Below, one piece after another: positions 24,190 through 48,803 of a stretch of DNA of 64,000 nt. Positions within the stretch are counted from its first letter, which is position 1. Every line of letters begins with the position of its first letter. The notes under the pieces were generated by a model. The model saw only the letters and a list, made by a program, of their open reading frames with translations, made no database searches and had not been told where the DNA came from. The position numbers and the translations under genes were made by a program. Source of the DNA: an uncultured Candidatus Saccharibacteria bacterium (lineage in GTDB: Bacteria > Patescibacteriota > UBA1384 > DTJR01). The stretch is from NCBI GenBank assembly GCA_964487045.1, contig CAZAOT010000001.1:4875-68874 (forward strand). The letters run 5' to 3'.

Positions 24190-24218
24190 TTGACTTGAAG
24201 CCGATATTATGTTATTTT
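24190..24218 (+). promoter_or_regulatory. putative promoter of GC-rich island 1
   Basis: TTGACT (24190-24195), 17 nt, then TATTTT (24213-24218). The -10 box is weak. The track ATG at 24209 lies inside this promoter. Confidence 0.35.
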
Positions 24219-24268
24219 TTTGTGTCAGGTTTTTTGCAGCCTGCATCACAGCAAGGGAGGGTTGTACC

Positions 24269-25675
24269 TTGAAACTTCGAGATTTGACTAGGGTTAGTAC
24301 GGCCGGTCAGCTTCATCATCTTCTGAGTAAGAAACGAACCCGCAATGAGAATGTCGAGCTGGGGGCTCTGCTCGAGAGTAATCTAGCGCTTGCCAGGCGA
24401 CTGGTCACCTTGGTGGCTGGCTCTGCTGACGCTAGTCTGGTCAAGATGTTCTCACCGATCTTCTGTCTGCTTTCGTCATCTTTGAGGGCGCAGATGATTG
24501 AGTCTTTCAAGCCGTTCAAGAGCAGAGAGTTTCTGTTCTTCGTCTCAAGTCTACCGGCCAAGGGGCTAAGGTACTTGATCAGGGCCCTCGATAAGATGTC
24601 GTCCGTTGACGACACGAGGTTTTGTCTCGGAAAGCTAGTCGTATCAGGCAATCCCGAATGGCCGGGTGTTATCGGCGAGGCTTTTTCGGACAAGGACCTT
24701 GACAGGTTGCGGGCGCGTGAGCCGATCTGTAGCGAACAATCAGAGGAATTCACTTCTCTACAGGCTATTACCTACATGATCGGTAGCTTGCTCTCAGCCA
24801 GCGTCATTCTTCTGCCGGTGTGTGGTCGGAATCCTCGACCCGAATACAACCTCGCTGGTTTCAAGCTGACAGAGATCAGGCCTCATGAGACATTGGTTAT
24901 GAATGGAGAGAAGTCTCAGAACCACTGGCTTCCTTGGGTATTTCAGACAGAGGAGGGAGTTGAGAAGGCGCTCCACTTACTCGAATTCCTCGTCGGCAGT
25001 CTGAGCCTCTGCGATCAGGGCAACGAGTTGCTCAACAGGATTGGTGACGATGCCGAAAGGATGCTGGTAGAGATCAGTGAGCGCTGGGAAGCAATCAAGA
25101 AAGGCGTGCATCGCTGGGTACTCCCAGATGGACAGATGAAGCTTCGGTTCGGAGGCGACTTTGTCTTCTGTGGCCTGATGGTGACAGAACTTCACCCCGG
25201 GAAGAAAGTACCCGAGATGACGGTCAGAATCGTACAGAATCGATTCGGTTACCTCAAGTTCAAGGATCGGCCTCTCGACGAGAATGGCCTTTTTAAGGAC
25301 ATGGACCTCGGTAAGCAGGTCGGACTGCTCGAACTTGGCATCAACCACAAGGTGGTCTGCTGGCTGGCTGATTACGCTTTGCGACCTTCAAACTACAAGC
25401 CAAAGAATGGTGAAGGCAAGAGTCTTGACCCGATCAAGGTCGCGTTTGGCGAAGGCAAGCTGCCTGCTGGGTTTCACCTTCCTGAGTATATGAATCTCCC
25501 GGACAAGATAAAGCAGAACGGCAAGCCTTACGAAGCCAGTGGCGATGCGAAGAAGCGCGCCGAAGCGCTGGGCTGGGCCGAGCCGACTGATGGTCAGACC
25601 TTTAGGATGTCGGGAGATCCTCTTAAGGAAGGCCTTGGCCTTCCGGAACCCCTCGACATCGTATATGATGTCTGA
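24269..25675 (+). CDS. orphan protein of GC-rich island 1
   Basis: About 468 aa from the TTG at 24269, preceded by GGGAGGG 7 nt upstream. G/C-ending codon bias unlike the flanks. No family recognised. Followed by a hairpin terminator. Confidence 0.7.
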   Translation: MKLRDLTRVSTAGQLHHLLSKKRTRNENVELGALLESNLALARRLVTLVAGSADASLVKMFSPIFCLLSSSLRAQMIESFKPFKSREFLFFVSSLPAKGLRYLIRALDKMSSVDDTRFCLGKLVVSGNPEWPGVIGEAFSDKDLDRLRAREPICSEQSEEFTSLQAITYMIGSLLSASVILLPVCGRNPRPEYNLAGFKLTEIRPHETLVMNGEKSQNHWLPWVFQTEEGVEKALHLLEFLVGSLSLCDQGNELLNRIGDDAERMLVEISERWEAIKKGVHRWVLPDGQMKLRFGGDFVFCGLMVTELHPGKKVPEMTVRIVQNRFGYLKFKDRPLDENGLFKDMDLGKQVGLLELGINHKVVCWLADYALRPSNYKPKNGEGKSLDPIKVAFGEGKLPAGFHLPEYMNLPDKIKQNGKPYEASGDAKKRAEALGWAEPTDGQTFRMSGDPLKEGLGLPEPLDIVYDV

Positions 25676-27768: not shown

Positions 27769-27797
27769 TTGATTTGGCGCCTCGCTTGTACTATACT
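27769..27797 (+). promoter_or_regulatory. sigma70-type promoter of GC-rich island 2
   Basis: TTGATT (27769-27774), exactly 17 nt, then TATACT (27792-27797), about 70 nt upstream of the ATG at 27869. Confidence 0.6.
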
Positions 27798-27868
27798 CTG
27801 CGGATCTCAAGATTTCTCTTGAGTTGCGACGAAATAGTGAACATTGACATAGAAGGGAATGGTTACGA

Positions 27869-29638
27869 ATGCAAGAGCTGGTGCTGTTTGTTGCTGTAAT
27901 CGGCTATCTGATCGGGTCGATACCGATCGGCTATCTGATTGGCAAGAAGTTCGGCGTGAATCTTCTCGAAGAAGGGTCTAAGGCGATCGGCCGGACCAAC
28001 CTCGAGCGGGTTCTCGCGCCGATCATCGGCGCCAAGCGCGCCAAGCTCTGGGGTTATATCGGCGAGGCAGGCGACCAGCTCAAGGGACTCGTCCCAATTC
28101 TGATTGGTATGCTTCTGCTTCGTCTTGACCCCATCTCGCTCGCTGTCCTCGCTACTTCGCTCATTCTCGGCCACTGCTACTCTGCGTTTCTTTTCTTCAG
28201 GGGTGGCAAGGGAGTCGCGACGACGATGGGCATCGTGCTTGCTCTTTGCTGGTACATCGCTGTGCCATGCTACGTGTTCTGGTTTGCCGCCAAGAAAGCG
28301 CTCGAGACCAAGACGCAGGAGGCAACCGCACTCGCTTCGATTCGCGGAGGTCTTCTGGTTGGTGTTCTGGGAGTCATGGTCACGCACGACCTGGCCATGC
28401 AGATCTTCTTCGCCTTTGCTGCGCTTCACATCGTTTTTGCTCACCGCGAGAACCTGAAGCGCTACAGGCAGGAACAGCTGCAGAAGAAGCTTGAGAAAGC
28501 AAGCTTCCCGGACGATATGCCGACCGGTGTATTCATCACCGATGCGGCTACGAACAATCCTGAGACGGTCAAGCGGCTTCTGATGCAAAAGAAGAAGTTC
28601 GCCTGGCTCGTCAACCTCTTTCCGGCCCAGTTCGTCTGCGACGTGATTCTCCCCATCATCCCGATGAAGTACCTGAAGATGGGCGAGGTCATCCTCGAGA
28701 ATGATCTTGGGGCCAAGGTCAGAGTTGTGACCTGGGGCTACCCGGACATCCCAAGACGAATGATGGAGAACCCGGGCCGTACGATCTCGAGGCTACTTGA
28801 TCTTTGTTCATACGTCGAGTCGCTTGGTGCAGACGACATCTGCCTTGGCGCCAACACAGCCAGTGTCGGCGACAAGGGAGCAACGCTTCAGCAGTTTGCC
28901 CAGTCGATCACGAACGGCAATCGCCTAACCTGCGTCTATGCGGTTAAGGCTGCTCTCAAAGTGCTAGACACAATGCTAATCCCTCGAGGAACCGCTGTAG
29001 CAACTGTGGTTGGCAGTGGCGGCTCAGTAGGAGATGGCGTGTGTCAGCTTCTGCTCAAGGCCGGTATCGGACGCCTGTATTTGGTTGGAAGCACTCTTGG
29101 TAAACAGGCTGGTCAGGCAACTGAGCTCTCGAGGCGTTTTGGGGTTCCGGTTGAAGAACTGGGACTAATGGACGCCCTCTCGCGAAGTCATCTGGCCATC
29201 TTTGCCTCTAGTGGTACGGCCAGAGAGAACGCGCACAAGATCAATCCCGAGGCGCTTCCAGCAGGCTTGATTGTCGTTGACATGGAACGCCCGCGCGAGA
29301 TCTCAAAGATGCTTGCCGAGTATGTGTGGCTTCTGCCGAACGATGGTGGCATGGTTGCTATCGAAGGAACGGGCAAGGCTGGGACTGGCTTGCCTGAAGG
29401 CGTTTACTTCCCTTGTTTCAGCGAACTAGCCTTGCGCCTCTTCCGCGGAATCAGGACGAAGTGGTGCTATCCAGCTACTCTCGAGGAATTGAGGGAGGTT
29501 TGGGAAGCGGCTGAGGAGGAAGGCTTCTCTCTAGCTGGTCTGCGTCTTAATGAGCAGCCAGTTGAAGATCATGAGCTTGCTTTCCGTATCGAGCAAGCAG
29601 AGATGGCAAAAGCCTACAAACCCAGGAGGGTGACATGA
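27869..29638 (+). CDS. fusion protein: PlsY-like glycerol-3-phosphate acyltransferase + acyl-ACP-reductase-like NAD(P) domain
   Basis: 589 aa, GC-rich.
- Residues 1-200 are PlsY-like: YLIGSIPIGYLIGKKFG, GDQLKG, LGHCYSAFLFFRGGKGVATT, AHRENLKRY.
- Residues about 215-589 are collinear with cyanobacterial AAR recalled from memory: TNGN, VVGSGGSVG and YFPCFSE versus TTGN, VVGATGDIG and MFACFAE, which contains the catalytic Cys. Confidence 0.8.
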   Translation: MQELVLFVAVIGYLIGSIPIGYLIGKKFGVNLLEEGSKAIGRTNLERVLAPIIGAKRAKLWGYIGEAGDQLKGLVPILIGMLLLRLDPISLAVLATSLILGHCYSAFLFFRGGKGVATTMGIVLALCWYIAVPCYVFWFAAKKALETKTQEATALASIRGGLLVGVLGVMVTHDLAMQIFFAFAALHIVFAHRENLKRYRQEQLQKKLEKASFPDDMPTGVFITDAATNNPETVKRLLMQKKKFAWLVNLFPAQFVCDVILPIIPMKYLKMGEVILENDLGAKVRVVTWGYPDIPRRMMENPGRTISRLLDLCSYVESLGADDICLGANTASVGDKGATLQQFAQSITNGNRLTCVYAVKAALKVLDTMLIPRGTAVATVVGSGGSVGDGVCQLLLKAGIGRLYLVGSTLGKQAGQATELSRRFGVPVEELGLMDALSRSHLAIFASSGTARENAHKINPEALPAGLIVVDMERPREISKMLAEYVWLLPNDGGMVAIEGTGKAGTGLPEGVYFPCFSELALRLFRGIRTKWCYPATLEELREVWEAAEEEGFSLAGLRLNEQPVEDHELAFRIEQAEMAKAYKPRRVT

Positions 29639-30804
29639 ACAGTAGGGTGGCCGTGCTTGGAGCGGGCCAGTTTGGCTTTGCTCTTGCTTGCCGATTGGCT
29701 CAAGGCGGGATAAAGACGGTTCTGTGGGGCCGTAGTCCGCATATTCTCAGCGGTCCGCGGGCAGTCTCACAGCGGTTCAGTGGTGGATCGCCGCCCCTTG
29801 GGCTTCAAGTTACTGGCGGATCAGGTCTTCCCAGCCTGGATGACTTTGACCTGGTCTTTGTCGCCACTGATTCTTCTGGACTCGCTGAGCTAGTCCCGAT
29901 GATCGCCCAGAGTGATATTGGCGATACGCCGGTTCTTCTTGTCCAGAAGGGTCTTGTGAATGGTGTCTCTCCCGTGGAATTCGCTAGCGCCGCCGGACTT
30001 AACGCCGGTTCGTTTACCGGCGCGGCCTTCGCAAGTGACATCTATCTCGGCTCTGAGGCGATGATGATCGTCGCAGCCGAGGACGTTACCCTCTGCATTA
30101 CAGTGATGGAGCTGCTTAAGCCCCTTAAGTTCTGGATAACTGCATGTAGTGATCCAGACGCGATCTGCGCTGCCAACGTAGCGCGAACGATCACCTCGAT
30201 CGAGATGGGTATTGTCAGCGGCTTCGCGGACTACTTGCAGCGCCAATCAAAGTATGCACTGGTGCCGCATAGGTCGCCTGACTTTACTCCAACCGAGATC
30301 GCGGCGGCCACCGCTAGCATCCAGTACGAGTGGCGGGTTGTCTCAGCGATGCTTAGTCCGGTGATTAACTCCTTGCTCTATCCAGAAGTAGTCTCGGATG
30401 ATGTTTCGATCGTGCGCAACATCAATCGCGAGCGCATTCTCAGGGTCCTTTCCGCTGACAACTACCTCTGCAGCGGGATGATACTCGACCGTAACGACAG
30501 GGGAGGAGATTCTCGGGTGACTCTGGGTCTTCCTCTCGCCACACCGGTCTCGCGCAACTGGCGGTTTGGCTATGCGCTTGGCTGCTGGCGTTATGTCCCG
30601 GATGCCATAAGGGCGGTTGCTGACCTTGGAGTGATCCAGGGGCAGCAGAACGCTCTTGATCTATACAAGCGGTTCGGTGCGAGCGCCCCGCCGTTTCTCA
30701 CCTCCCTTGGCCGAATCTTGACTGAAGTGTCAAAGGTCGAGGAGGAGATCCAGGTCATTCGCGATCGTCGCGATGCCTGGTATGAAAAGTACGCTTCTAG
30801 CTGA
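29635..30804 (+). CDS. divergent GpsA-like NAD(P)H-dependent glycerol-3-phosphate dehydrogenase homolog
   Basis: 389 aa, GC-rich. VAVLGAGQFGFALACRLAQGG...VLWGR aligns with the GpsA N-terminus, and further blocks are collinear (VLLVQKGL; FTGAAFA). ATGA overlap with the upstream fusion gene. Confidence 0.65.
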   Translation: MNSRVAVLGAGQFGFALACRLAQGGIKTVLWGRSPHILSGPRAVSQRFSGGSPPLGLQVTGGSGLPSLDDFDLVFVATDSSGLAELVPMIAQSDIGDTPVLLVQKGLVNGVSPVEFASAAGLNAGSFTGAAFASDIYLGSEAMMIVAAEDVTLCITVMELLKPLKFWITACSDPDAICAANVARTITSIEMGIVSGFADYLQRQSKYALVPHRSPDFTPTEIAAATASIQYEWRVVSAMLSPVINSLLYPEVVSDDVSIVRNINRERILRVLSADNYLCSGMILDRNDRGGDSRVTLGLPLATPVSRNWRFGYALGCWRYVPDAIRAVADLGVIQGQQNALDLYKRFGASAPPFLTSLGRILTEVSKVEEEIQVIRDRRDAWYEKYASS

Positions 30805-30822
30805 GCTATGCTCGGTCTTACA

Positions 30823-30860
30823 CGGGCTCCCGGAAGTTTTCCGGGAGCCCGTTTCTTTTT
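30823..30860 (+). terminator. intrinsic terminator (shared with convergent gene)
   Basis: CGGGCTCCCGG (30823-30833) pairs with CCGGGAGCCCG (30841-30851), followed by TTTCTTTTTT. Confidence 0.8.
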
Positions 30861-31729
30861 TAGTACAAATCTAACTTTGGTTTTTTCTTTTGATAATTTG
30901 CGAATGCTTTTTTCCAACTTTTTGACCAGTAACCGGGCTTCTTGCGGTAATCTTCAAACAGAAATAATCCGCAGTACGGACAAAGTTTCTCCAATTGTTC
31001 GCGCATCGAATCTTTATCCTCTGGCAGAGTTTTTCTTCCTAAATTGAAGCCCATAATTCGATCAATTGATCCAGCATTCGGGCAAGCATAATAGCCGTGC
31101 TTGGTAAGTGATTTGCCGCACTGGTTTAGAACTAGGCAGCCATTTCTAAAATCTGCATCCTTATATCGTTTGCGATCTCGAGGTGCAGCGTTGATAGAGA
31201 TAAAGTAGCCGTGTATTTGAGAGGTCTTTTTATTGTTTTGGATAATTATGCCTTCTGGCAACTTTTTAATCTCATCTTGAACTTTTTTACCGACCCCATT
31301 GGTGATGATTTTAATTTCTGATTTTGGTGAAAAATCGCGTTTATATTTTAAAAGCAAGCGAAACATCCCCATAGTTTCTGGTTCGAGCGTTGATTCTCCG
31401 CCATAAACCGTTATCCTTCCCCATTTCTTACCCGCTTTTTTCGACTCGGAAATAAATTTTTTCACTTGCTCAATCGTCATTTTCTCGCGCGATGGAGCTT
31501 GGCGACACATCTGAGAGCAGTCGTAACATTTGAGGTTGCAATGATAGGTGGTGATTAAATCTACTTTATTAGGGTCGCTTCTGTAAGCATAACCAAGTAT
31601 CTTGGTCACTCTAGGATTGATTCGAAAACGGTGCCAATTATCTTTTAAGAAAAAATAGCTCCAGCGAGCAGCTTTTTTCAGTGGTTTTATTCTATATACT
31701 ATCTTCCGAACAAAAAAGTTTTCTGTCAC
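30860..31729 (-). CDS. radical SAM protein
   Basis: 289 aa with CNLKCYDC (CxxxCxxC). AT-rich native composition. Confidence 0.75.
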   Translation of the reverse strand: MTENFFVRKIVYRIKPLKKAARWSYFFLKDNWHRFRINPRVTKILGYAYRSDPNKVDLITTYHCNLKCYDCSQMCRQAPSREKMTIEQVKKFISESKKAGKKWGRITVYGGESTLEPETMGMFRLLLKYKRDFSPKSEIKIITNGVGKKVQDEIKKLPEGIIIQNNKKTSQIHGYFISINAAPRDRKRYKDADFRNGCLVLNQCGKSLTKHGYYACPNAGSIDRIMGFNLGRKTLPEDKDSMREQLEKLCPYCGLFLFEDYRKKPGYWSKSWKKAFANYQKKKPKLDLY

Positions 31730-32301: not shown

Positions 32302-33474
32302 TTATCTGTTAGATAGGTCACCAATAATTTTTTTGTATGTAGCGACGCTCTTTCTTGGTTTGCGGTCAATTGTATGCAGACCAAACATCATCGAGTAACC
32401 ACTGGCCCACTCAAAGTTATCAAGAAGCGACCAATAGAAATAGCCACGAAGATCATATCCGTCCTTTATCGACTCGCCAAGCTCCTGAAAAACGTTCTCT
32501 AGATAAGCTTGGCGCTTATCGTCATCGATCGTGTCATCGCAAGGAATGCCGTTTTCAGTAATATAAATTGGTTTATTATATTTGCTTGCCTCCTTGATAA
32601 CTTCACAAATTCCAGACGGCTTTTGGATCCAGTGATATTTTTCTTTTTCGGTAATTCGATCGCGGATGAATTTTGGGCTAAAACAGACGAAATGACTCAA
32701 ATAATGATTGATACCTACAAAATCAAAATGTCCCTTTATCTTGTTTAAGAAAAATTCGTTAACTAACCATTTGGCAAGACCAGTTAGTAGTCTATCTTGC
32801 CAAACGGGACGAGAAGGGAAAAATGCGCTCATATTATAAGCAATTCCAATTTGAATATCCTTACTTTCTTTTTTCATTGCTAAATAGGACTGCTTTTGGG
32901 CTGAAATAAGATTAAAAAAAGTTCTGACGCCGTCTAGGTATGCGCCTCGTCTTCCAGGATACCAGTTCCCAGCGATGAATCCGGTCATTACATAGACATT
33001 TGGTTCGTTTAGGACAGACCATAGCTTCACTTCATTGCCGAACTCCTTCGCCATCCTAGAGGCAAACCTAGCAAAATACCAAGGGGCTTTGCGATTGGTC
33101 AGGCCTCCCTTGTCATCTAGCCAGACGGGTAGGGTGAAGTGAAACAGCGTCACCATAGGCTCAATTTTGTTTCTATTGAGCTCGGCAATTATTTCCCGGT
33201 AATGTTCAACAGCCTCTTGATTGAATTTTCCTTCTTCGGGCTCGATTCGTGACCATTCTATCGAAAAACGATAAGCATTTTGAGAAGAATCCTTCAGAAG
33301 TTTAATATCATCACGCCATTTATTGTAACTATCCGCCGCTATTTCAGCAGTATCATGATTATGAATCTTTCCGGGAAGTTTCTCCCACTCAGACCAGTCA
33401 TTGTGCTGGTGCCCTTCGATTTGGTGAGCGCTTGTGGCTGAGCCGAATAAAAATCCTTTTGGAAATTTTATCAT
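32302..33474 (-). CDS. glycoside hydrolase family 1 beta-glucosidase
   Basis: 390 aa with NEPN (acid/base Glu) and ITENG (nucleophile Glu) motifs. Confidence 0.9.
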   Translation of the reverse strand: MIKFPKGFLFGSATSAHQIEGHQHNDWSEWEKLPGKIHNHDTAEIAADSYNKWRDDIKLLKDSSQNAYRFSIEWSRIEPEEGKFNQEAVEHYREIIAELNRNKIEPMVTLFHFTLPVWLDDKGGLTNRKAPWYFARFASRMAKEFGNEVKLWSVLNEPNVYVMTGFIAGNWYPGRRGAYLDGVRTFFNLISAQKQSYLAMKKESKDIQIGIAYNMSAFFPSRPVWQDRLLTGLAKWLVNEFFLNKIKGHFDFVGINHYLSHFVCFSPKFIRDRITEKEKYHWIQKPSGICEVIKEASKYNKPIYITENGIPCDDTIDDDKRQAYLENVFQELGESIKDGYDLRGYFYWSLLDNFEWASGYSMMFGLHTIDRKPRKSVATYKKIIGDLSNR

Positions 33475-33893
33475 CTGACTTTTTTTGAATATTTAGTAAT
33501 CAGATCTTTTACTCCAGCGATGACCGCGTCGCGTACTTCAGGATCACTTTGCGCCACCCAAATTGCCAGGTTGTAGAGCTTAGCCGGCTGAATTGTCATC
33601 CATCTTTTATTTAAGAACAAAAAGATAAGCAATGTTGTGACGGCAATGCGCTTGTTGCCATTTTGAAAGGGATGGTTTTTGATGAGTAGATAAAATAATA
33701 CCGCCGCCTTTTCTTCGAATTCAGGATAGAGATCCTTGCGATTATAGGTCTGAAAGGGTACAGCAAGACAGCTTTCCAGCACTTTTGGAAATCTTGTCTC
33801 AAACGCAGGGATTGGTTCATCCCAAGCCATAGTAGCGATGGCGAGCTGGTGAGCAATATCTTTGATGTGATCAACTCCAATACGCTTGATCAT
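33471..33893 (-). CDS. doc: Doc (death-on-curing) Fic-family toxin
   Basis: 140 aa with Fic/Doc motif HPFQNGNKR. ATGA overlap with the upstream HTH gene. Confidence 0.88.
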   Translation of the reverse strand: MIKRIGVDHIKDIAHQLAIATMAWDEPIPAFETRFPKVLESCLAVPFQTYNRKDLYPEFEEKAAVLFYLLIKNHPFQNGNKRIAVTTLLIFLFLNKRWMTIQPAKLYNLAIWVAQSDPEVRDAVIAGVKDLITKYSKKVR

Positions 33894-34147
33894 TCTGCTC
33901 CCAAGTCCTTAATGACCGACCCATAATCTCGAAGTGTTTTCTCTACACCCTTAGTAATCAGAGACTTATCGTTGCCAGAAATTTCCCCCGTAATTTTATT
34001 GAGCTCTCCGATTGGTATCAGGTAATTTTTACCAAAACGCTCAGACTTAATAAGCCCAGCCTTTACTCTTCTAAAGATCTGAGATCTGCTCATACCGATT
34101 GCAAGTGCGAAATCGGGGATAGTGATAAATTCCTTTTCATGTTGCAT
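33890..34147 (-). CDS. helix-turn-helix antitoxin partner of Doc
   Basis: 85 aa. N-terminal excisionase/MerR-like HTH (FITIPDFALAIGMSRSQIFRRVKAGLI). Translationally coupled to doc. Confidence 0.75.
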   Translation of the reverse strand: MQHEKEFITIPDFALAIGMSRSQIFRRVKAGLIKSERFGKNYLIPIGELNKITGEISGNDKSLITKGVEKTLRDYGSVIKDLGAE

Positions 34148-34722: not shown

Positions 34723-35628
34723 CTATTTTTTAAGCTCTAGGTAGACCAAAGTCCAGTATGATGAGAAATAAGCCTGTACGATGCCAGCTAGAAAAAACAT
34801 CACGGCCAAAAATGGAATTCCTAGAATTATCGAATAAACGACGGTACTGATTAGGCCGAGCGTCGTATAAACCCCGAAACCAATTAGGGAAAGTATCAGA
34901 CCGATGACTCCGATAACTATCAAAATCCCAAGTCCAGCACCCATATTTAGAACCATTTGTAGAAGCATCGCTAAAATCGAATTGCCAAGATTAGCTTTAA
35001 TTTTTCTAAGAGATCTTACAAAAGCCTCGTAAGTACCTGCCTTTTCCAGAACAATTTCCCTCTTGGCATATTCGACTGTTGGAACTAATCCAAAGCAGAT
35101 TAAAATCATTCCAAGAATGCCGACGAATACTAGGATTCCACCCAAAATGTAAATCGGTAGCGCCTGAACAAAGACCATAAGTAGAATTGGCATGGCCATA
35201 AATACTAACATCCAACCCATGACCAAGGCGCAGACTAACAGTCCGAGAAGAAATAATTTTCCAGCGTAACCCTTGCTAGATGCCCACGCCTGTGAAAAAT
35301 TCTTGAAGTGAGTTTTATTTTCAATTTTATCTACTGAGTTTATAAGCCCTGCTTCTGCTCGAAGAGATAAATAAATAAAAACAATTGCCAAGACAAACAT
35401 GATAAGGGTAGCGATAATTATCGCTGATTCGTGCGTTGAGACCCAATTTGAAATATTATCAGCAATAGGACCAACCTGATCTGATTCATTCATGTTATAT
35501 CCAGAGGACATGCTGTTTGGCATACTGCTTGATCCACCTGCCAAGGAAGCAAGTACTCCAAGACCCCATAAATATCGGTAATGTTTTATATTCTGGAAAG
35601 ATTTCGAAATAATTTTGCCAAAGTCCAT
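34723..35628 (-). CDS. polytopic membrane protein, unknown function
   Basis: 301 aa, about 6 TM segments, AT-rich native composition. Confidence 0.65.
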   Translation of the reverse strand: MDFGKIISKSFQNIKHYRYLWGLGVLASLAGGSSSMPNSMSSGYNMNESDQVGPIADNISNWVSTHESAIIIATLIMFVLAIVFIYLSLRAEAGLINSVDKIENKTHFKNFSQAWASSKGYAGKLFLLGLLVCALVMGWMLVFMAMPILLMVFVQALPIYILGGILVFVGILGMILICFGLVPTVEYAKREIVLEKAGTYEAFVRSLRKIKANLGNSILAMLLQMVLNMGAGLGILIVIGVIGLILSLIGFGVYTTLGLISTVVYSIILGIPFLAVMFFLAGIVQAYFSSYWTLVYLELKK

Positions 35629-38244: not shown

Positions 38245-38321
38245 GCACCCGTAGCTCAGCTGGATAGAGCGTTGGCTTGCGGAGCCAAAGGTCGTAGGTT
38301 CGAATCCTATCGGGTGTACCA
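38245..38321 (+). tRNA. tRNA-Arg (anticodon GCG)
   Basis: 77 nt. Acceptor GCACCCG/CGGGTGT, D arm with A20, anticodon arm TTGGC-TTGCGGA-GCCAA, T arm GTAGG-TTCGAAT-CCTAT, encoded CCA. Its last 6 nt are also the first 6 nt of IR-A. Confidence 0.9.
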
Positions 38322-39776
38322 GTACGGAAATGTCAAATTTTGGGAGTTTGCGCCGCCTGCGGCGGCGACTAAATTGTAGGGAATTTTTGCTTCAAAATGC
38401 CACTTTCGATTCTGTAAGAAATGGTTCGAGCCGATATTTTTGAGAAATGTTAGAATTTCCGAATAATCTTCGGAATTTTTTAGTTTATCTGCTTTGGCAA
38501 GCGATAAAATGAACTCTTTGGCCGGTTCGAGCCAAGACAATCCTTTTTGTTCAAAATCTGTAATTTTTTCGTTAATCTCCAGCTTTTCGCTAAGTAGCTT
38601 TTGTTTTCGCAAAGTATATTCTTCGGTTGTAATGACTTCGCTCAGATATACATCGAGTAATTTTTCAAGCTGTTTCGTAATTTCTTCGAGCTTTACTTTG
38701 AGATTTTGAACAGAAGTTTTAGCCAACGTTCTTGCTTGAGTTTCTTGTTTCTCTAATTCAAACAAAACTTTTTTGGTATCTTGGCTCGACAAAGAAACTT
38801 TTTGTAAATACCCATTTATTTGCTCAACGAGTTTTTCTTCTCGCAGATAATGCTTTTCTTGGCAACCACTTTTCTTTTTTGTGCATCGGTAATAGTTGTG
38901 GCCTTTTTGTATTTCGGCAGTAATCGCACAGCCGCAACTTTTACATTTCATAAGCCCAAGAAAAGCAAAATGATGTTTTTCCTTTTTGCGAGGCTTGCCA
39001 CGATCTTTCAATACTTCTTGGCATTTATCAAAAAGTTTCTTTGGGATTATCGGTTTGTGTTTTCCTTCGTATATTTCGCCGTTATATTTCATTAGCCCAA
39101 TGTAGAAAATATTTTGTAGAATTGAATTGATATTGCTGATAGAAATCCTCTTGTTGAGATTCCCGAATAACATGTCATCTTCCGCCCAATTTGCGAGAGA
39201 ATTAAAGGTATATTTGCCGGTTGAATAGAGCTCAAAAAGCTTTCTGACTTTTCTAACCTTTATTTCGTCGACATCAATATTTCTTGTTCTCGGATTATTT
39301 ATATAGCCAACCGGCGCCCAGCCGGGCCAAACTCCATTTCGTATTTTTTGCCTTAACCCTCGTTTTACATTCTCTCGCAAATTGTCTACAAAATATTTTG
39401 ATTGACCAAAAGCAATGTTCAACATGAAAATCCCTTGAGGTGTTGGTTCAAACCAGAACGAAGGAAAACACAAGGATTTGATTTTCTGCCGGTCTATCAT
39501 GTGGATTATCTTTCCACCGTCTACACTATTTCTTGCTAACCTGTCAGGGTGCCAACTCAAAATCCCTTCCGCCTTTCCTTTTTCGATCAATTCTAACATT
39601 TCAGCGAACTTCGTTCGACCAGGTTCTTTGGCAGTTTTGGCTTCGCACAGCGAAGCGACAATTTCAAGTTTTTCTTTGGCGGCAAATTCCCGAAGCTCAA
39701 CTAGTTGAGCTTCAATCGAAAGAACTTGTCTGTCATCATCTTCAGTACTTTTGCGAGCGTAAATTATGTAGCGCAT
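38307..39776 (-). CDS. large serine recombinase (integrase)
   Basis: 489 aa from the ATG at 39776 (RBS AAAGGAGG).
- MRYIIYARKSTEDDDRQVLSIEAQ resolvase catalytic domain (Ser10).
- Recombinase domain, zinc ribbon CKSCGC...YYRC...C, and a coiled-coil.
- AT-rich.
- The last roughly 36 codons lie in IR-A, and the stop lies inside the tRNA. Confidence 0.9.
   Translation of the reverse strand: MRYIIYARKSTEDDDRQVLSIEAQLVELREFAAKEKLEIVASLCEAKTAKEPGRTKFAEMLELIEKGKAEGILSWHPDRLARNSVDGGKIIHMIDRQKIKSLCFPSFWFEPTPQGIFMLNIAFGQSKYFVDNLRENVKRGLRQKIRNGVWPGWAPVGYINNPRTRNIDVDEIKVRKVRKLFELYSTGKYTFNSLANWAEDDMLFGNLNKRISISNINSILQNIFYIGLMKYNGEIYEGKHKPIIPKKLFDKCQEVLKDRGKPRKKEKHHFAFLGLMKCKSCGCAITAEIQKGHNYYRCTKKKSGCQEKHYLREEKLVEQINGYLQKVSLSSQDTKKVLFELEKQETQARTLAKTSVQNLKVKLEEITKQLEKLLDVYLSEVITTEEYTLRKQKLLSEKLEINEKITDFEQKGLSWLEPAKEFILSLAKADKLKNSEDYSEILTFLKNIGSNHFLQNRKWHFEAKIPYNLVAAAGGANSQNLTFPYWYTR
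38316..38415 (+). repeat. IR-A, left copy (100 bp)
   Basis: Manual base-by-base comparison with the reverse complement of 39817-39916 gives 98/100 identical (mismatches at 38398 and 38407). Contains the palindrome CGCCGCCTGCGGCGGCG. Confidence 0.9.
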
Positions 39777-39816
39777 TTTCCTCCTTTTAATTTCATAAAA
39801 ATTTTCTTTTACAATC

Positions 39817-39916
39817 ACAGAATCAAAAGTGGCAATTTGAAGCAAAAATTCCCTACAATTTAGTCGCCGCCGCAGGCGGCGCAAACTCCCAAAATTTGAC
39901 ATTTCCGTACTGGTAC
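39817..39916 (-). repeat. IR-A, right copy (100 bp, inverted)
   Basis: Reverse complement of 38316-38415 with 2 mismatches. Lies upstream of the recombinase start. Its outer 7 nt (CTGGTAC) are shared with IR-B. Confidence 0.9.
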
Positions 39917-40175: not shown

Positions 40176-40225
40176 AGCAGGAAAATCTCTGTACAGGCCA
40201 CAAGGCCGTGCAAGGAGTGAGAACA

Positions 40226-40846
40226 TTGTCTAAGGTCAACAGTATCCAGCTCACGTGTCTCAAGCCGAATGACTGTTCCACCCGACTTGCTCTTCCCGAA
40301 GTCACCTACGACTTTCGGGTGTGGGCTATCATCAACGACCTTGAGAAGGCCGTTGAGAAGGCGGGCGGTGCAACGCTCGCAGTCTTCGCGGGTGTTCCGT
40401 GGGAGTACGGGAGCCGCTCGGTCAACTTTCTCAACTATGTGGCCGAGATGGTGGTGAGAACAAACCGCGGCAAAGGGGAATTCATCGGAAGAAGCTATCT
40501 TGCGAGTGGCGGGATGTCACGGCTCGCAAGCTTGATGAAGGACGTTCGGCCAGACGGACAGATCAGAGCTGTGGTCGACCAAATCACGCGAACAATCTGG
40601 TCCGACCAGCCGATCCCGCGCGGTTTGCCCGACAATCTCTGGTACGAGCAGACGGACTACGAGTCGTTCTGCATCAAGTCGGGCAAAGGTGACATCATCA
40701 GGTGGGTTCCCGAGAATCAAGTTCAGGAGGAGCGGACGATGGGATTTCTCCGCTTGGAGTTTGAGGAGCCCTCTGTCAAGCACTTCTGTCAGCTAATTCA
40801 ACAGCTACATCGCTTTCCGGGTGTGGCCGAGTTCGCCAACGGCTAG
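40226..40846 (+). CDS. orphan GC-rich cargo protein of the recombinase element
   Basis: About 206 aa from the TTG at 40226 (AAGGAG 8 nt upstream); GTG at 40208 or 40217 are alternative starts. G/C-ending codon bias. No family recognised. Followed by a terminator. Confidence 0.65.
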   Translation: MSKVNSIQLTCLKPNDCSTRLALPEVTYDFRVWAIINDLEKAVEKAGGATLAVFAGVPWEYGSRSVNFLNYVAEMVVRTNRGKGEFIGRSYLASGGMSRLASLMKDVRPDGQIRAVVDQITRTIWSDQPIPRGLPDNLWYEQTDYESFCIKSGKGDIIRWVPENQVQEERTMGFLRLEFEEPSVKHFCQLIQQLHRFPGVAEFANG

Positions 40847-40869
40847 CTGTAGACCGGAGTACAAGCAAC

Positions 40870-40898
40870 AGGCAGACCAGCAGTGGCCTGCCTTTTTT
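40870..40898 (+). terminator. intrinsic terminator after cargo gene
   Basis: AGGCAGACC pairs with GGCCTGCCT (one mismatch), followed by TTTTTCTT. Confidence 0.6.
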
Positions 40899-40969
40899 CT
40901 TGCCGCCAAAGGAGAAATCTGCTAAGATTTCTCTAGTGAGCGAAGCTCACTAAAAAACTTGAAATTGTC

Positions 40970-41064
40970 AAAGTTCAGAATTTCAGTCGGGAATTTTCGG
41001 GGGTGTTTTCTCGGCCGCTTCGCGGCCAAAATACGTTCGAACAATTTTCAGGATAGAGTACCAG
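40970..41064 (-). repeat. IR-B, right copy (95 bp, inverted)
   Basis: Perfect reverse complement of 39910-40004. Ends with GTACCAG at 41058-41064. Confidence 0.92.
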
Positions 41065-41186
41065 AATAAAATTTGCCCCTCGCGGGCTAATTTTATTATT
41101 TGGGAACCATAGGATTCGAAGGCCGCAGCGAGCGTAGGCGAGCGAGGCGGGGTCGATGAATTTGCCAGCAGGCAAATATCAGTGAC

Positions 41187-41208
41187 CGAATCCTATCGGG
41201 TGTACCAG
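41187..41208 (+). repeat. direct repeat of tRNA-Arg 3' end (att-type site)
   Basis: 22/22 identical to 38301-38322. Followed by hairpin ATATGAC...GTCATAT plus T8 (41210-41248). Confidence 0.85.
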
Positions 41209-41288
41209 AATATGACCCCGCACAAGTGGAGTCATATTTTTTTTATTGATGTTGTTTGATGAGCGGGGTAAAATTAAATAAATAATTA

Positions 41289-41828
41289 ATGGCAAATTAT
41301 ATGAACGAAGATACAAAGCATAAGTTTCTGTTAGCAATTTTGATTATATTGATCATAGTGCTCCTAGGCTTGGTTGGGCTTATCTATAGACAGATTAAGT
41401 CTGCTAGAGACGTGGCAGCTCGAGAGGATGGCTTGGTGTCAAGCTCAGCTACAATCGCTCCTACGGACAATATCAGTGTATCCTACGACTTGGGGTCACC
41501 AAGCAGCGCAAATACGGAGATACTTGATGGCGTTAAGGACGTCGCAAATAGGTTTATGCAAGCCAAAGAAAATCGATCTCTAGAAGAAGCCAAGCCTTAT
41601 ATGACTGAAGATCTATTTAAGTCGACAGCTCAGGAAGAATTCGCTGGAACGTCTAGTCCGTCAATGGATCGATTTGAGGTTAAAAGTGCCCAAGCGGTTA
41701 AGACTCCAAATACTTATGAAGTTGATGTGGTTAGCTACTGGAAATTAAACGGCGAAGATGCCGAAACGGTTAATTATAGTTTGATAGTTATAAAACAAGA
41801 CGAAAATTATCTGGTTAGTAAATTCTAG
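41289..41828 (+). CDS. hypothetical membrane-anchored protein
   Basis: 179 aa with an N-terminal TM helix (FLLAILIILIIVLLGLVGLIY). AT-rich. Confidence 0.65.
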   Translation: MANYMNEDTKHKFLLAILIILIIVLLGLVGLIYRQIKSARDVAAREDGLVSSSATIAPTDNISVSYDLGSPSSANTEILDGVKDVANRFMQAKENRSLEEAKPYMTEDLFKSTAQEEFAGTSSPSMDRFEVKSAQAVKTPNTYEVDVVSYWKLNGEDAETVNYSLIVIKQDENYLVSKF

Positions 41829-41981
41829 TCCTATTATTTTGATAGAGGACCTCTTAGAGCATTTCGGCTCTACTGATTTTGATATATTTTTCTAATATTT
41901 CAAACAACCTTAATTATATCTGGCAACACAAATAATAATTATTTTTTGGCCAAACACAATTAAGGTTGTATTTAAGTTAAC

Positions 41982-42293
41982 TTAGATATTAAACTTGTCT
42001 GCGTACTGTCCAATGATAGGTAACGGCTTTTCTTGTCCTCCAACTGCATTGATTATACCCATAATCCAGAGGATGAAGACGACTAAACCTCCGACGATGG
42101 AGATGATCTGTCCGATCACCGGTATCACATTAATAATGCTTACCGCTATCGAAGCGATGATCAAAACCAAACCTTGCTTGATGTGAAATTTTACAAACGC
42201 ATCGTTCTTCGCATCAGTTAACAAGGGAACCACGATCAAGATACCTAGATAACACAAAACAGCCATTCCAATATTTTTACTTCCTTCGGCCAT
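41982..42293 (-). CDS. DUF4870-type small membrane protein
   Basis: ATG at 42293, preceded by GGTGGGTGA. MAVLCYLGILIVVPLL...KFHIKQGLVLII is typical of DUF4870. Confidence 0.7.
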   Translation of the reverse strand: MAEGSKNIGMAVLCYLGILIVVPLLTDAKNDAFVKFHIKQGLVLIIASIAVSIINVIPVIGQIISIVGGLVVFILWIMGIINAVGGQEKPLPIIGQYADKFNI

Positions 42294-42437
42294 ATTATCA
42301 CCCACCTTTCTTACTAAATTGTAGCAAAAATTCTGATAAGTAAATACCTTTTAAAATTTTGATTATTATGCTTGCTTTAGCGTGGTTTATCTGGTAAAAA
42401 ATGCATATCACGACCATGTTCGAAGGATGGTGAGCAG

Positions 42438-42635
42438 ATGGCCAGGCATATGAGTTGGCGTAAAGGTGGTCGGGCGAGACCCAAGAGGTGTCACCGAGAG
42501 CAACCGGGTCACCCCGATCCGCAAGGTGCCCAGTGGCGTCACGAACGGTACATCGAGCAGATGCGCGCAAGCCTGAAGCCGGGACAGCTTGAGGCCCTTC
42601 AGGCGCTCAGCCACGGTTACCACAGGTACCGATGA
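42438..42635 (+). CDS. possible 65-aa highly basic protein of GC-rich island 5 (could instead be non-coding)
   Basis: ATG preceded by AAGGATGGTGA. Followed by hairpin AGAGTCTC/GAGACTCT (42656-42692) plus a T-rich run. The composition-biased sequence makes coding status uncertain. Confidence 0.35.
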   Translation: MARHMSWRKGGRARPKRCHREQPGHPDPQGAQWRHERYIEQMRASLKPGQLEALQALSHGYHRYR

Positions 42636-42717
42636 ACCACGAGCGCAGTCGTATCCAGAGTCTCAAGCTGGTCTTGTACCGGCGCGAGACTCTTCTTCTT
42701 TAATGATTGATTTTCCG

Positions 42718-43452
42718 TTATTTCTCTTGCCACACTTCTGTGATTACCTGTCTATTTTTTTTGAGGCCCGAACTTAGTGCCCAGCCATCTGCGGTTACAA
42801 ATGCGCATGCGGACTCGCCCCTTCCTCTGGGAATGATTTCTGCAGTTGGGGAAATTGCTCTTACGGATGCGACGGCTTGTTGTAAATCCTTTGTATCAAC
42901 TCGGGGAGAAAAAATAGTGTCGAGAACCTTGAATTGACTTTGCTTTACAGACTCGCCAATATGAGCGATTTGCTTTGCTGGAAGTCGGTATAGGATATGA
43001 CTTAGTAAAATAAAGAACTGGCCATCTTTTTCTAGACGCATCATTAGTGGGCAACAGTCCTTGGCTCTATCAGTATAAGCGCTAACACCACTGTCTGCTG
43101 GTAGAATAACAGCTGCGCTCCAGTTACTTTCATCAATGTAAACAACTTTTCCATCTTTATTTGAAAAAACAGGCATCTCTCCAGAATTATATGATCGAAT
43201 TGTTTGCCCATTCTCATCTTTAATATCCTCTATGGGTCCCTCGATCACAAATTGTTTATCTAAAGTTTCAGTCGGGCCTTCTCCTGAAAATATCATAACT
43301 TTAATGTTGCGGTACTGGTCCAGGATTTTTGCTCTTTTTTGTTCATCGTTAGGATCTTCGGGGGCAGCAGGTGCGCTTGGTATCTCCGTCATACGTTGAT
43401 CGTTAGGGGAAAGATTTTCTGGGTCTATCTGCGAGCGGCTTTCGTTAAGCAT
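42718..43452 (-). CDS. hypothetical protein
   Basis: 244 aa with an acidic, Pro-rich N-terminus. No family recognised. Downstream of tRNA-Ser(UGA) on the same strand. Confidence 0.65.
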   Translation of the reverse strand: MLNESRSQIDPENLSPNDQRMTEIPSAPAAPEDPNDEQKRAKILDQYRNIKVMIFSGEGPTETLDKQFVIEGPIEDIKDENGQTIRSYNSGEMPVFSNKDGKVVYIDESNWSAAVILPADSGVSAYTDRAKDCCPLMMRLEKDGQFFILLSHILYRLPAKQIAHIGESVKQSQFKVLDTIFSPRVDTKDLQQAVASVRAISPTAEIIPRGRGESACAFVTADGWALSSGLKKNRQVITEVWQEK

Positions 43453-43496
43453 AACTAGCCTTTAAACTATTATTTAAAATATGTAATATTCCCTAC

Positions 43497-43586
<90 letters not shown>

Positions 43587-43677
43587 CTCCGTCCTCTATT
43601 CTACGGAATTCTATCTTATTTTAGCAATTATTTCAATCCATTTACTAATTATTTTATATTTCCGCTATCTTTTGCTC

Positions 43678-43706
43678 TTGATTGTATGGGTATATTCTAG
43701 TATTAT
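43678..43706 (+). promoter_or_regulatory. sigma70-type promoter of GC-rich island 6
   Basis: TTGATT (43678-43683), exactly 17 nt, then TATTAT (43701-43706). Confidence 0.6.
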
Positions 43707-43750
43707 GACGTGACGAGAATTCGCGTTCATTACAGAGGAGAGAGTGCCAT

Positions 43751-44179
43751 ATGTGTAAGAAACTGATATTTGCTAGTACGCTGGCACCGAAACTCTACTG
43801 CTTGTGCACACCGAGTGAGGAGTTGCTGGAGGTCTTGCTTGAGCGTGCCAAGGACGATGAGTGTCGCGCCGAGCCACTTATGGTGGCCGAACAGGAGATC
43901 GAGTTCGGGCCAGCCAACTATCTTTATGACGAGGCCCGCATGCGCGTCTGTGAGGCTAGTGCAGGCATGGCTACGGTCATGATCCAGGTCGGTAGTCATG
44001 CTGATGGAATTCGATCAGTGCTTGTGCCTGTTGGCGAGAAGGAGGGTGATGACGAAGCCCTGCCTGAAGGGGCTTTGATGCCAGGTATCGGTTGCCCGAT
44101 GGAATGTCTGCTGGGCCTGGGGCTGTTTTGTCTCGTGATCAAAGGCGGCATTTGCGCCGTCCATTATCTGCTCGGCTAA
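43751..44179 (+). CDS. orphan Cys-rich protein with C-terminal TM helix (GC-rich island 6)
   Basis: 142 aa. RBS GAGGAGAGAG. C-terminus GIGCPMECLLGLGLFCLVIKGGICAVHYLLG. Confidence 0.6.
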   Translation: MCKKLIFASTLAPKLYCLCTPSEELLEVLLERAKDDECRAEPLMVAEQEIEFGPANYLYDEARMRVCEASAGMATVMIQVGSHADGIRSVLVPVGEKEGDDEALPEGALMPGIGCPMECLLGLGLFCLVIKGGICAVHYLLG

Positions 44180-44200
44180 TGGCCGGGAGGGGAGTACAGC

Positions 44201-44512
44201 ATGTCTTTGTTTGGCAAAAAGGGAGAGCCGAAGCCGCCTAAGGTGAGGAAGGAGCGCAAGCCGCGCGCTCCGATCACCAAGGAGCGAGTCTTTGAAGGGT
44301 TGTTGGCTTTTGGCCGCAACCTGTTGCTGGTAGTGACCGTCGTAGGCATCTTGGCGCTCTCGGCGCTCGTCTACGTCCTGTTCCAGAAGATCGGCGGCGG
44401 CAGTAGCGACCCAGCAACGAAGAACCTGATTCTCGTCGCGACTGCGATGACGGCCGGAGGCGGCTTTTTCACGCTCTGGCTCGGCCGCACCTGGGGCATC
44501 ATCCCGTACTAG
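44201..44512 (+). CDS. orphan two-TM protein with Lys/Arg-rich N-terminus (GC-rich island 6)
   Basis: 103 aa. RBS GGGAGGGGAG lies 6 nt upstream of the ATG. Followed by a strong terminator. Confidence 0.65.
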   Translation: MSLFGKKGEPKPPKVRKERKPRAPITKERVFEGLLAFGRNLLLVVTVVGILALSALVYVLFQKIGGGSSDPATKNLILVATAMTAGGGFFTLWLGRTWGIIPY

Positions 44513-44535
44513 GGCTGATGCCTGCGAGCATCTTT

Positions 44536-44576
44536 GGCGGTTTGTCCGGTCACCCGGACAAACCGCCTTCTTTTTT
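44536..44576 (+). terminator. intrinsic terminator
   Basis: GGCGGTTTGTCCGG (44536-44549), loop TCAC, CCGGACAAACCGCC (44554-44567), then TTCTTTTTT. Confidence 0.85.
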
Positions 44577-44582
44577 AAAAAC

Positions 44583-44603
44583 AAAAAAATCGCCCTTTGG
44601 CGA
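44583..44603 (-). terminator. intrinsic terminator of the valS-TPR operon
   Basis: TCGCC (44590-44594) pairs with GGCGA (44599-44603), with a T7 run on the minus strand. Confidence 0.5.
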
Positions 44604-47495: not shown

Positions 47496-47524
47496 TTGAC
47501 TAATTATTACTCTTGAGCTATATT
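47496..47524 (+). promoter_or_regulatory. sigma70-type promoter of GC-rich island 7
   Basis: TTGACT (47496-47501), exactly 17 nt, then TATATT (47519-47524). Confidence 0.65.
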
Positions 47525-47575
47525 TTCAGGATTGAGTGCCCCTTATGGGGCCCAAAGGACATTGAGGTGATGGCG

Positions 47576-48746: not shown

Positions 48747-48778
48747 GGCCGGAGGTTCGCCTCCGGCCTGTTTTTTTT
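48747..48778 (+). terminator. intrinsic terminator
   Basis: GGCCGGAGG (48747-48755), loop TTCG, CCTCCGGCC (48760-48768), then TGTTTTTTTT. Confidence 0.85.
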
Positions 48779-48803
48779 GAAAAAAGGTTCTACAATTAGG
48801 GTG

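Follow-up and report, generated by a model that had tools for sequence, protein, structure and literature searches.

How do bacteria that lack the usual suppliers of acyl-phosphate begin to build a phospholipid membrane? The question arises throughout the candidate phyla radiation (CPR), or Patescibacteria, which represents a large share of bacterial diversity and in which membrane building is an acknowledged open problem. Published surveys describe CPR bacteria with PlsY and PlsC and without PlsX, acyl carrier protein (ACP) or fatty-acid synthesis, and Probst et al., who found PlsX and ACP-related enzymes missing from CPR genomes that encode PlsY and PlsC, ask outright what produces acyl-phosphate in these organisms (PMC7242380). 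A 2024 perspective still lists CPR lipid acquisition as unresolved (PMC11665869). A 64,000-nt stretch of contig CAZAOT010000001.1 (assembly GCA_964487045.1, an uncultured Candidatus Saccharibacteria bacterium; hereafter the window) raises this question in a specific form, as it carries a 589-aa open reading frame (ORF) that joins a PlsY membrane domain to a cytoplasmic domain resembling acyl-ACP reductase (AAR), followed by an overlapping gene resembling gpsA (Table 1).

The two domains of the fusion

In searches with profile models, the two halves of the ORF fell into different families. The initial annotation had read the N-terminal 200 or so residues as PlsY, and this is supported by PF02660 (residues 11-198, E 4.7e-30; 105.3 bits against a Pfam cut-off of 24.1) and by the Aquifex PlsY structure 5xj5 (1e-18); the stricter PlsY equivalog model TIGR00023 gave 111.7 bits and did not reach its cut-off of 137.2. 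An AlphaFold2 model of the fusion, built on a 102-sequence alignment (mean pLDDT 96, pTM 0.85; a single-sequence model with pLDDT 37 was discarded), recovered both the PlsY and the AAR folds, with TM-scores of 0.86 and 0.82, respectively. Compared with the PDB using Foldseek, the model matched the seven-helix PlsY fold of 5xj5-5xj8 (target-normalised TM-scores of 0.85-0.87, root-mean-square deviation 1.9-2.6 A), AAR (6jzu) and, at approximately 0.7, the terminal amidation domain (TAD) of carmabin.

Residue numbers and roles in PlsY follow the structures of the Aquifex enzyme (aaPlsY), in which S35, R45, K104 and N180 clamp the phosphate of glycerol-3-phosphate (G3P), S142 and H177 are ligands of its 2-OH, and T41 (carbonyl-binding), H92 and the "phosphate hole" loop GGKGVAT contact acyl-phosphate (PMC5700162). 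The PlsY domain in the window retains all of these residues and the loop, with the phosphate hole at H102 and G112-A117 in its own numbering. An alteration of motif 1 had been noted initially, and alignment confirms the change (GSKAIGRTN, against GSGNVGATN in aaPlsY) with one correction: Asn37, here Ala, is the sole loss within SKAIGRTN, and the substrate-binding residues are all present. In aaPlsY, Asn37 touches neither substrate and is a proposed oxyanion stabiliser, and the N37A mutant has approximately 18% of activity left (PMC5700162). Judged by its residues, the PlsY domain of the fusion looks catalytically competent.

For the C-terminal domain, residues 82-339 of Synechococcus AAR (6jzq) gave an alignment at E 7e-9. 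The blocks that had suggested collinearity of the C-terminal 375 or so residues with AAR (TNGNRLT/TTGNTHT, VVGSGGSVGDGVC/VVGATGDIGSAVC and YFPCFSE/MFACFAE) do pair up, and the Cys of YFPCFSE (C516) aligns with the Ser of the 6jzz chain, an AAR-C294S entry. However, the AAR equivalog TIGR04058, which has a cut-off of 449.7, scored just 21.5 bits, and hence the domain is a superfamily member and not an AAR ortholog. Its best NCBIfam match was the N-terminal region of PigE (7.7e-17); the PigE structure 4ppm matched at 3.9e-5, and the Semialdhyde_dh NAD-binding domain gave a sub-threshold Pfam match (E 0.0065). By sequence, the domain belongs to the wider AAR/PigE-N-terminal/TAD superfamily and not to an unrelated Rossmann family with an unconserved cysteine, an outcome that had been allowed for initially. 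Across 95 aligned family members, Cys516 is conserved in 100% and Glu519 in 99-100%, the glycines of the NAD(P) loop in 96-100% of fused and stand-alone members, and the TxGN motif in 86-100%; the AAR-like domain therefore also looks catalytically competent. It shares with the cyanobacterial enzyme (6jzq, 6jzu) the fold, the catalytic Cys, the Gly-rich NAD(P) loop and TxGN, but is only approximately 20% identical to it and is tied to a membrane acyltransferase, and the acyl-ACP substrate of AAR contrasts with a host group reported to be without ACP (PMC7242380).

The geometry of the model is favourable. The junction (residues 201-220) was modelled confidently (pLDDT 87-88), and the last PlsY helix ends on the cytoplasmic side with the G3P-binding motif H192/N195, approximately 20 residues past which the AAR-like fold is predicted to start. 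The active site of PlsY lies half-way into the cytoplasmic leaflet and is open towards the cytoplasm (PMC5700162). Given that opening, both active sites would lie on the same face of the membrane, in domains joined by a short linker.

Might the two domains be separate genes joined by an assembly or frameshift error? Close relatives do hold both parts as separate genes (L006, L007/L008; L numbers denote related loci), as such an error would require. Nonetheless, an identical 589-aa ORF was called in three other independent assemblies, with no frameshift or stop splitting it, and divergent fused orthologs occur at 62%, 46% and 41% identity (L002, L001 and L009 carry fused orthologs, as do at least 13 more cluster representatives). 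These observations dismiss a frameshift artefact, which we regard as extremely improbable. The fusion of PlsY with an AAR fold, including the catalytic Cys that had been proposed from sequence motifs, is intact, and is neither an artefact nor a one-off.

Table 1. Features of the fusion gene, its GpsA-like partner and their control elements (positions in the window)
Feature	Position	Strand	Basis or remark
Sigma-70-like promoter candidate, TTGATT-17-TATACT	27769..27797	+	9/12 consensus positions
Shine-Dalgarno-like AAGGGA, 10 nt before fusion ATG	27853..27858	+	read in sequence
Fusion ORF, PlsY domain plus AAR-like domain, 589 aa	27869..29638	+	ORF call
PlsY membrane domain, residues 1-206	27869..28486	+	PF02660, 5xj5, TM-score
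PlsY motif 1, GSKAIGRTNLER	27974-28009	+	within fusion ORF
PlsY LGH	28166-28189	+	
PlsY GGKGVAT	28199-28225	+	
PlsY HRENL	28439-28465	+	
AAR-like (thioester-reductase-fold) cytoplasmic domain, residues 212-589	28502..29638	+	6jzq, PigE, TM-score
TNGNRLT	28910-28930	+	AAR-like domain
Gly-rich NAD(P)-binding loop VVGSGGSVGDG (G382, G385, G388)	29006..29038	+	family conservation
DMERPRE	29279-29299	+	AAR-like domain
Cys516 codon, counterpart of AAR catalytic Cys294	29414..29416	+	6jzq alignment, family conservation
Shine-Dalgarno AGGAGG of second gene, inside fusion 3' end, 5 nt before ATG	29624..29629	+	
GpsA-like NAD(P) dehydrogenase, 389 aa, ATGA overlap with fusion	29635..30804	+	ORF call, PF01210
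GAGQFG	29659-29676	+	
QKG	29941-29955	+	
NVARTI	30175-30192	+	
SRN	30547-30570	+	
Intrinsic terminator hairpin, 14-bp stem, 10 G-C pairs, T-run	30822-30852	+	strong

Recurrence of the association and the GpsA-like partner

An exhaustive profile search with the C-terminal domain returned 1,235 relatives at E <= 1e-3. Fusions were counted among the best 150, which include another 14 cluster representatives (50% identity) that are PlsY fusions; altogether, at least 16 further cluster representatives at that identity combine PlsY with an AAR-like domain. The architecture thus defines a recurrent family, which also occurs as separate genes. In L002 (62% identity) and L001 (46%), the fused gene is followed by a GpsA-like gene and, farther downstream, by a cyclophilin gene; an upstream VIT1-like gene is also kept in L001, and a GH1 gene in L002. 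In L009, a Candidatus Berkelbacteria metagenome-assembled genome, the fused ortholog overlaps the GpsA-like gene by 4 nt. The unit is split into adjacent plsY and AAR-like genes in three lineages (L006, L007/L008 and L024/L025). For example, L006 has plsY (210 aa), a 4-nt overlap, an AAR-like gene (387 aa) and then a gpsA-like gene, and in L024/L025 a 1-nt gap separates plsY (203 aa) from the AAR-like gene.

In 9 of the 12 lineages with readable context, the gene immediately downstream is GpsA-like (the exceptions are L016, L020 and L024); the nine include L015, L017 and L018, although their AAR-like domains are just 24-31% identical to that of the window. The PlsY + AAR-like + GpsA-like association is recurrent and selectable. 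Neighbour-joining grouped the PlsY-linked domains in a single subclade (33 of 95 leaves), which also contains stand-alone or split members. Other partners of the AAR-like family include class-III aminotransferases (as in PigE), SRPBCC lipid-binding, PilZ and GAF domains. Conversely, other long PlsY proteins in databases bear unrelated C-terminal domains; six of approximately 600 aa (P0007, P0008, P0015 and P0017-P0019) were considered as instances of the same fusion and rejected on this ground. The closest stand-alone relatives, those of Armatimonadota (L010-L013), have a conserved gene order of pantothenate kinase, Dus and AAR-like (scanned in L010 and L011), and L011 has a FadH-like gene of the 2,4-dienoyl-CoA-reductase type after it, with a similar-sized ORF at a like position in L012 and L013.

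Public annotations of these proteins name one domain only (e.g., "glycerol-3-phosphate acyltransferase", "PlsY", "fatty aldehyde-generating acyl-ACP reductase" or "predicted amino acid dehydrogenase"). The initial annotation knew of no PlsY with such a partner, and our search of the literature on PlsY, acyl-ACP reductase, fusions and CPR/Patescibacteria found no description of the fusion. Both domain families are known; the architecture and its conserved operon were not found described.

Conservation of the PlsY site was compared among 17 fused cluster representatives, including the window's own protein. All G3P- and acyl-phosphate-binding residues are retained in 13 of them, with slight variation (T41 is Ser in one, H92 is Asn in one, and position 142 is S or T). 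At position 37, where 88% of PlsY sequences generally have Asn (PMC5700162), 9 of these 13 fusions have A, G or S, compared with approximately 12% non-Asn in PlsY at large. This enrichment suggests that the acyl-transfer site of PlsY has co-adapted to the AAR-like partner.

Translational coupling of the second gene, also proposed initially, is borne out by its start at 29635 inside the fusion ORF and the AGGAGG upstream of it. Its predicted GpsA-like N-terminus was recovered as well, with PF01210 (the GpsA N-terminal domain) scoring 31.7 bits over a cut-off of 23.1. The C-terminal domain model PF07479 gave 12.5 bits (cut-off 25) and the best NCBIfam GpsA model 55.4 (cut-off 202), and the protein falls below every GpsA equivalog cut-off. 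The lysine of the GGxxKN block is catalytic in GPDH structures. In the window, the block is NVARTI; HMMER and MAFFT alignments both place an Arg (R184) where the Lys would stand, a replacement that had been suspected. All nine operon partners aligned have Arg-Thr/Pro/His instead of the canonical Lys-Asn, and hence the Arg is a conserved signature of a subfamily, as judged from these alignments, and not decay. Compared with E. coli GpsA, the partner otherwise retains the N-terminal Rossmann domain and motif, the QKG Lys, the conserved Asp and the phosphate-binding SRN. The copy in the window also has an extra insertion of approximately 35-65 residues, depending on the partner compared. The Berkelbacteria ortholog is annotated at NCBI as a hypothetical protein.

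The claim that the unit has its own promoter and terminator held in part. The terminator is strong and separates the operon from a convergent radical-SAM gene. The promoter-like site matches 9 of 12 consensus positions, but sites of this kind do not exceed chance in the region (4 found, 2.0 +/- 1.3 expected), and it is therefore weak evidence.

A possible supply of acyl-phosphate to PlsY

We tentatively favour, at a little below an even chance, a reading of the two genes as a compact module for lysophosphatidate synthesis in a CPR-type (Berkelbacteria-related) bacterium, in which the cysteine domain loads an acyl group and supplies the PlsY donor, most likely acyl-phosphate. The GpsA-like enzyme would convert dihydroxyacetone phosphate (DHAP) to G3P, to which the PlsY domain would transfer an acyl group. 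The AAR-like domain, which a short linker connects to the C-terminus of PlsY on the cytoplasmic side, beside the active site, would bind the acyl group as a thioester at Cys516 and pass it, activated, to PlsY. The likeliest route would be phosphorolysis of the thioester to acyl-phosphate, by analogy with GAPDH/ASADH chemistry, and it would replace PlsX or FakAB, which are reported to be lacking from CPR genomes. Given the conserved NAD(P) site, the thioester may come from oxidation of a fatty aldehyde with NAD(P)+; alternatively, the acyl group could be transferred to the Cys from an acyl-thioester or ester. With NAD(P)H consumed by the GpsA-like enzyme, the path from aldehyde and DHAP to lysophosphatidate could be redox-neutral. 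In this scheme, we infer which way the acyl group flows, that phosphate resolves the thioester, and what the acyl source is. Its most specific form, with the AAR-like domain as an acyl-phosphate synthase that opens a third route independent of PlsX and FakAB and is redox-neutral with the Arg-variant GpsA, is possible, though doubtful.

The initial interpretation is supported in part, and supply of acyl-phosphate in place of PlsX, which it had proposed, remains hypothetical but is the best-fitting reading because CPR genomes are reported to lack PlsX, because PlsY has a precedent for fusion to a FakB-like protein, because of the chemistry of the fold and the proposal made for the TAD, and because the PlsY phosphate hole is intact, so that the donor should still carry a phosphate. 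In a search for PlsY fusions, Li et al. found a FakB-like (DegV) acyl-phosphate carrier at the PlsY C-terminus in two UniProt entries, the same position that the AAR-like domain occupies here (PMC5700162). In common with the PlsX/PlsY and FakAB/PlsY systems, the fusion has a PlsY with all substrate-binding residues and, presumably, lysophosphatidate as product; it differs in having no homology to PlsX (PF02504) or DegV/Dak, in its Cys/NAD(P) partner and in the replacement of Asn37. Neither the fusion nor any other scanned ORF in the window matched PF02504, so any PlsX-like role would be by analogy only, and Pfam scans of the window ORFs found no plsX, fak, fab or acpP gene in the 64 kb. Phosphorolysis of a Cys thioester is the reaction of GAPDH and ASADH, which, with ArgC, are mechanistic analogues (Cys thioester plus Pi to acyl-phosphate, coupled to NAD(P)) with no family-level homology to the domain. 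In AAR and GluTR, the acyl group moves to Cys before reduction (PMC8341465). Closer in fold is the TAD of the carmabin non-ribosomal peptide synthetase (PDB 9e4s and related), which has an invariant Cys beside NAD and whose authors propose that a non-hydride nucleophile attacks the Cys thioester (bioRxiv 10.1101/2024.10.28.620694). The TAD has features of its own, namely a macrodomain-like N-terminal subdomain, a location at the end of synthetase modules and a proposed nucleophile that is ammonia and not phosphate, and its mechanism is itself a proposal. PigE/TamH offers a parallel in architecture, as there too an AAR-like domain is fused to an enzyme that uses its product (a class-III aminotransferase), although in pigment biosynthesis, whereas the partner here is PlsY and the setting primary lipid metabolism.

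Several observations weigh against acyl-phosphate supply. A phosphate-binding feature specific to PlsY-linked domains was sought in the family alignment and none was found. The sequence R474-P-R476 is present in 100% of PlsY-linked domains and also in 41-51% of stand-alone homologs, and this RPR motif, although enriched, was dropped as a fusion-specific phosphate site. The strict conservation of the NAD(P) loop suits an ordinary reductase equally well. Furthermore, a separate clade of four fusions (P0062, P0077, P0132 and P0133) has degenerate PlsY motifs, with S35, K104 or N180 lost, and still retains the AAR-like Cys and NAD(P) loop, so the AAR-like domain can act without PlsY catalysis; the membrane domain of these proteins may be an anchor only, or may have a new specificity. 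Lastly, the closest Armatimonadota homologs are stand-alone and lie in housekeeping contexts (CoaX, Dus) without a link to lipids, which gave no lead on function.

Some of these points are what one would expect of a genuine reductase, in which Cys516 would accept an acyl group from PlsY-bound acyl-phosphate or an acyl-thioester, and NAD(P)H would reduce it to a fatty aldehyde for another membrane product such as ether or vinyl-ether lipids, fatty alcohols or wax, with the PlsY domain acting as a membrane anchor or a dock for acyl-phosphate. All relatives that are characterised, at least in part, are thioester reductases (AAR, PigE N-terminal domain). Both the Cys and the NAD(P) loop are invariant, and the Cys persists where PlsY has degenerated; conversion of acyl-phosphate to aldehyde is also established chemistry in ASADH, ArgC and ProA. 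We nonetheless judge this function unlikely, as it leaves the source of acyl-phosphate unexplained and accounts neither for the conservation of the G3P residues in PlsY nor for the coupled, G3P-producing GpsA-like gene. Moreover, the product of cyanobacterial AAR is channelled to the partner enzyme ADO, a family absent among the Pfam-scanned window ORFs and from related loci, and these scans found no aldehyde consumer of any kind looked for (ADO, aminotransferase or alkyl-DHAP synthase) in the operon or window. All 72 intact polar lipids reported from a CPR-enriched size fraction were acylglycerols (PMC7242380), and a role in ether lipids is disfavoured for this reason.

The stand-alone homologs in non-lipid contexts, the many partners of the AAR-like family (including PilZ, GAF, SRPBCC and aminotransferase domains) and the unrelated C-terminal domains joined to PlsY in other phyla would also agree with mere co-location, whereby PlsY provides membrane targeting or co-expression for an independent or regulatory domain (for example, one that senses NAD(P)H or has an unrelated acyl- or amino-acid dehydrogenase activity) and no substrate is handed over. 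This is quite unlikely given that the pair recurs both fused and as coupled split genes, in the order plsY, AAR-like and gpsA-like, in highly divergent lineages (AAR-like domains 24-64% identical), that the junction is short and confidently modelled, and that non-Asn residues at position 37 are enriched (PMC5700162). The dispensability of Asn37, the proposed oxyanion stabiliser, in 9 of 13 fusions and the tight tether predicted between the domains would be compatible with a direct transfer, in which the sn-1 hydroxyl of G3P in the PlsY pocket attacks acyl-S-Cys516 and no free acyl-phosphate is formed. We consider direct transfer very improbable, since the phosphate hole (H92 and the GGKGVAT loop) and the carbonyl-binding T41 are still conserved, and the depth of the PlsY site, half-way into the cytoplasmic leaflet, would make it hard to reach for a Cys of a soluble domain (PMC5700162).

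Genomic surroundings and implications

The operon (27869-30804) is GC-rich, with a GC content of 0.56-0.57 and a third-position GC (GC3) of 0.62-0.64, compared with 0.39-0.42 and 0.36-0.45 in neighbouring genes. The contrast recurs in syntenic orthologous loci (L001, 10001-12815, 0.60 vs 0.44; L018, 1195-4034, 0.57 vs 0.41; also L009, 7383-10186, and L017, 6001-8792), and with synteny conserved, simple recent horizontal transfer was not accepted as a sufficient explanation. Other GC-rich genes were also noted in the window. A 488-aa ORF at 24209-25675 (+), on the strand opposite to its neighbours, has no Pfam or NCBIfam match (GC 0.53, GC3 0.61); the same syntenic slot in L001 (6444-7805) holds a GC-rich 453-aa ORF, also without a Pfam match and with no detectable similarity to it. 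A GT4 glycosyltransferase gene at 47513-48730 (+) has the highest GC3 in the window (0.70) and adjoins a paralogous-looking GT4 gene whose composition is normal (48777-49958, GC3 0.42); the long antisense ORF at 47543-48604 is probably a by-product of high GC.

Downstream, the convergent radical-SAM gene (30860-31729, -) shares the terminator hairpin and was found in the window's own lineage only (L003-L005), not in L001, L002 or L009. A DUF7544 gene lies approximately 4 kb from the operon (34723-35628, -), and a homolog with 32% identity is directly downstream of the gpsA-like gene in L017 (8927-9856), so this gene may be a recurring neighbour of the operon. Between them, a Fic/DOC-family gene (33471-33893, -) overlaps an upstream 85-aa ORF (33890-34147) by 4 nt in a toxin-antitoxin-like arrangement. 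Farther on, a large serine recombinase gene (38307-39902, -) extends at its end into a tRNA gene (38245-38318), and several ORFs without Pfam matches follow (40200-44600); this region could be a mobile element integrated at the tRNA.

A large surface-polysaccharide and nonulosonic-acid cluster (471-24108) comprises dTDP-sugar genes, a PseB-like dehydratase, a DegT aminotransferase, NeuB, a cytidylyltransferase, a HisH/HisF-like pair, a flippase and several GT2 glycosyltransferases. Within the same range, an acetyl-CoA-synthetase-like AMP-binding gene (2819-4666) implies that the organism uses CoA thioesters. A role at the surface or in adhesion is probable for two giant proteins of 1,967 and 1,487 aa (52712-63063, +), which contain Fn3, purple-acid-phosphatase-N, LamG and DUF2341 domains.

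For the biology of CPR bacteria, a conserved partner of PlsY that occurs both fused and split provides a specific, clonable candidate for the supply of acyl-phosphate, and the question can hence be tested with a two-gene construct. Whichever function applies, annotations that name a single domain hide the fusion architecture. If the AAR-like domain were a plain reductase, it would reveal that lipid assembly has, at its first step, a hitherto unknown branch to aldehyde. If it were an acyl-phosphate synthase, it would add a new reaction type to the AAR/PigE/TAD superfamily, give bacterial phospholipid synthesis a new entry route and explain how CPR bacteria without ACP and PlsX start their phospholipids.

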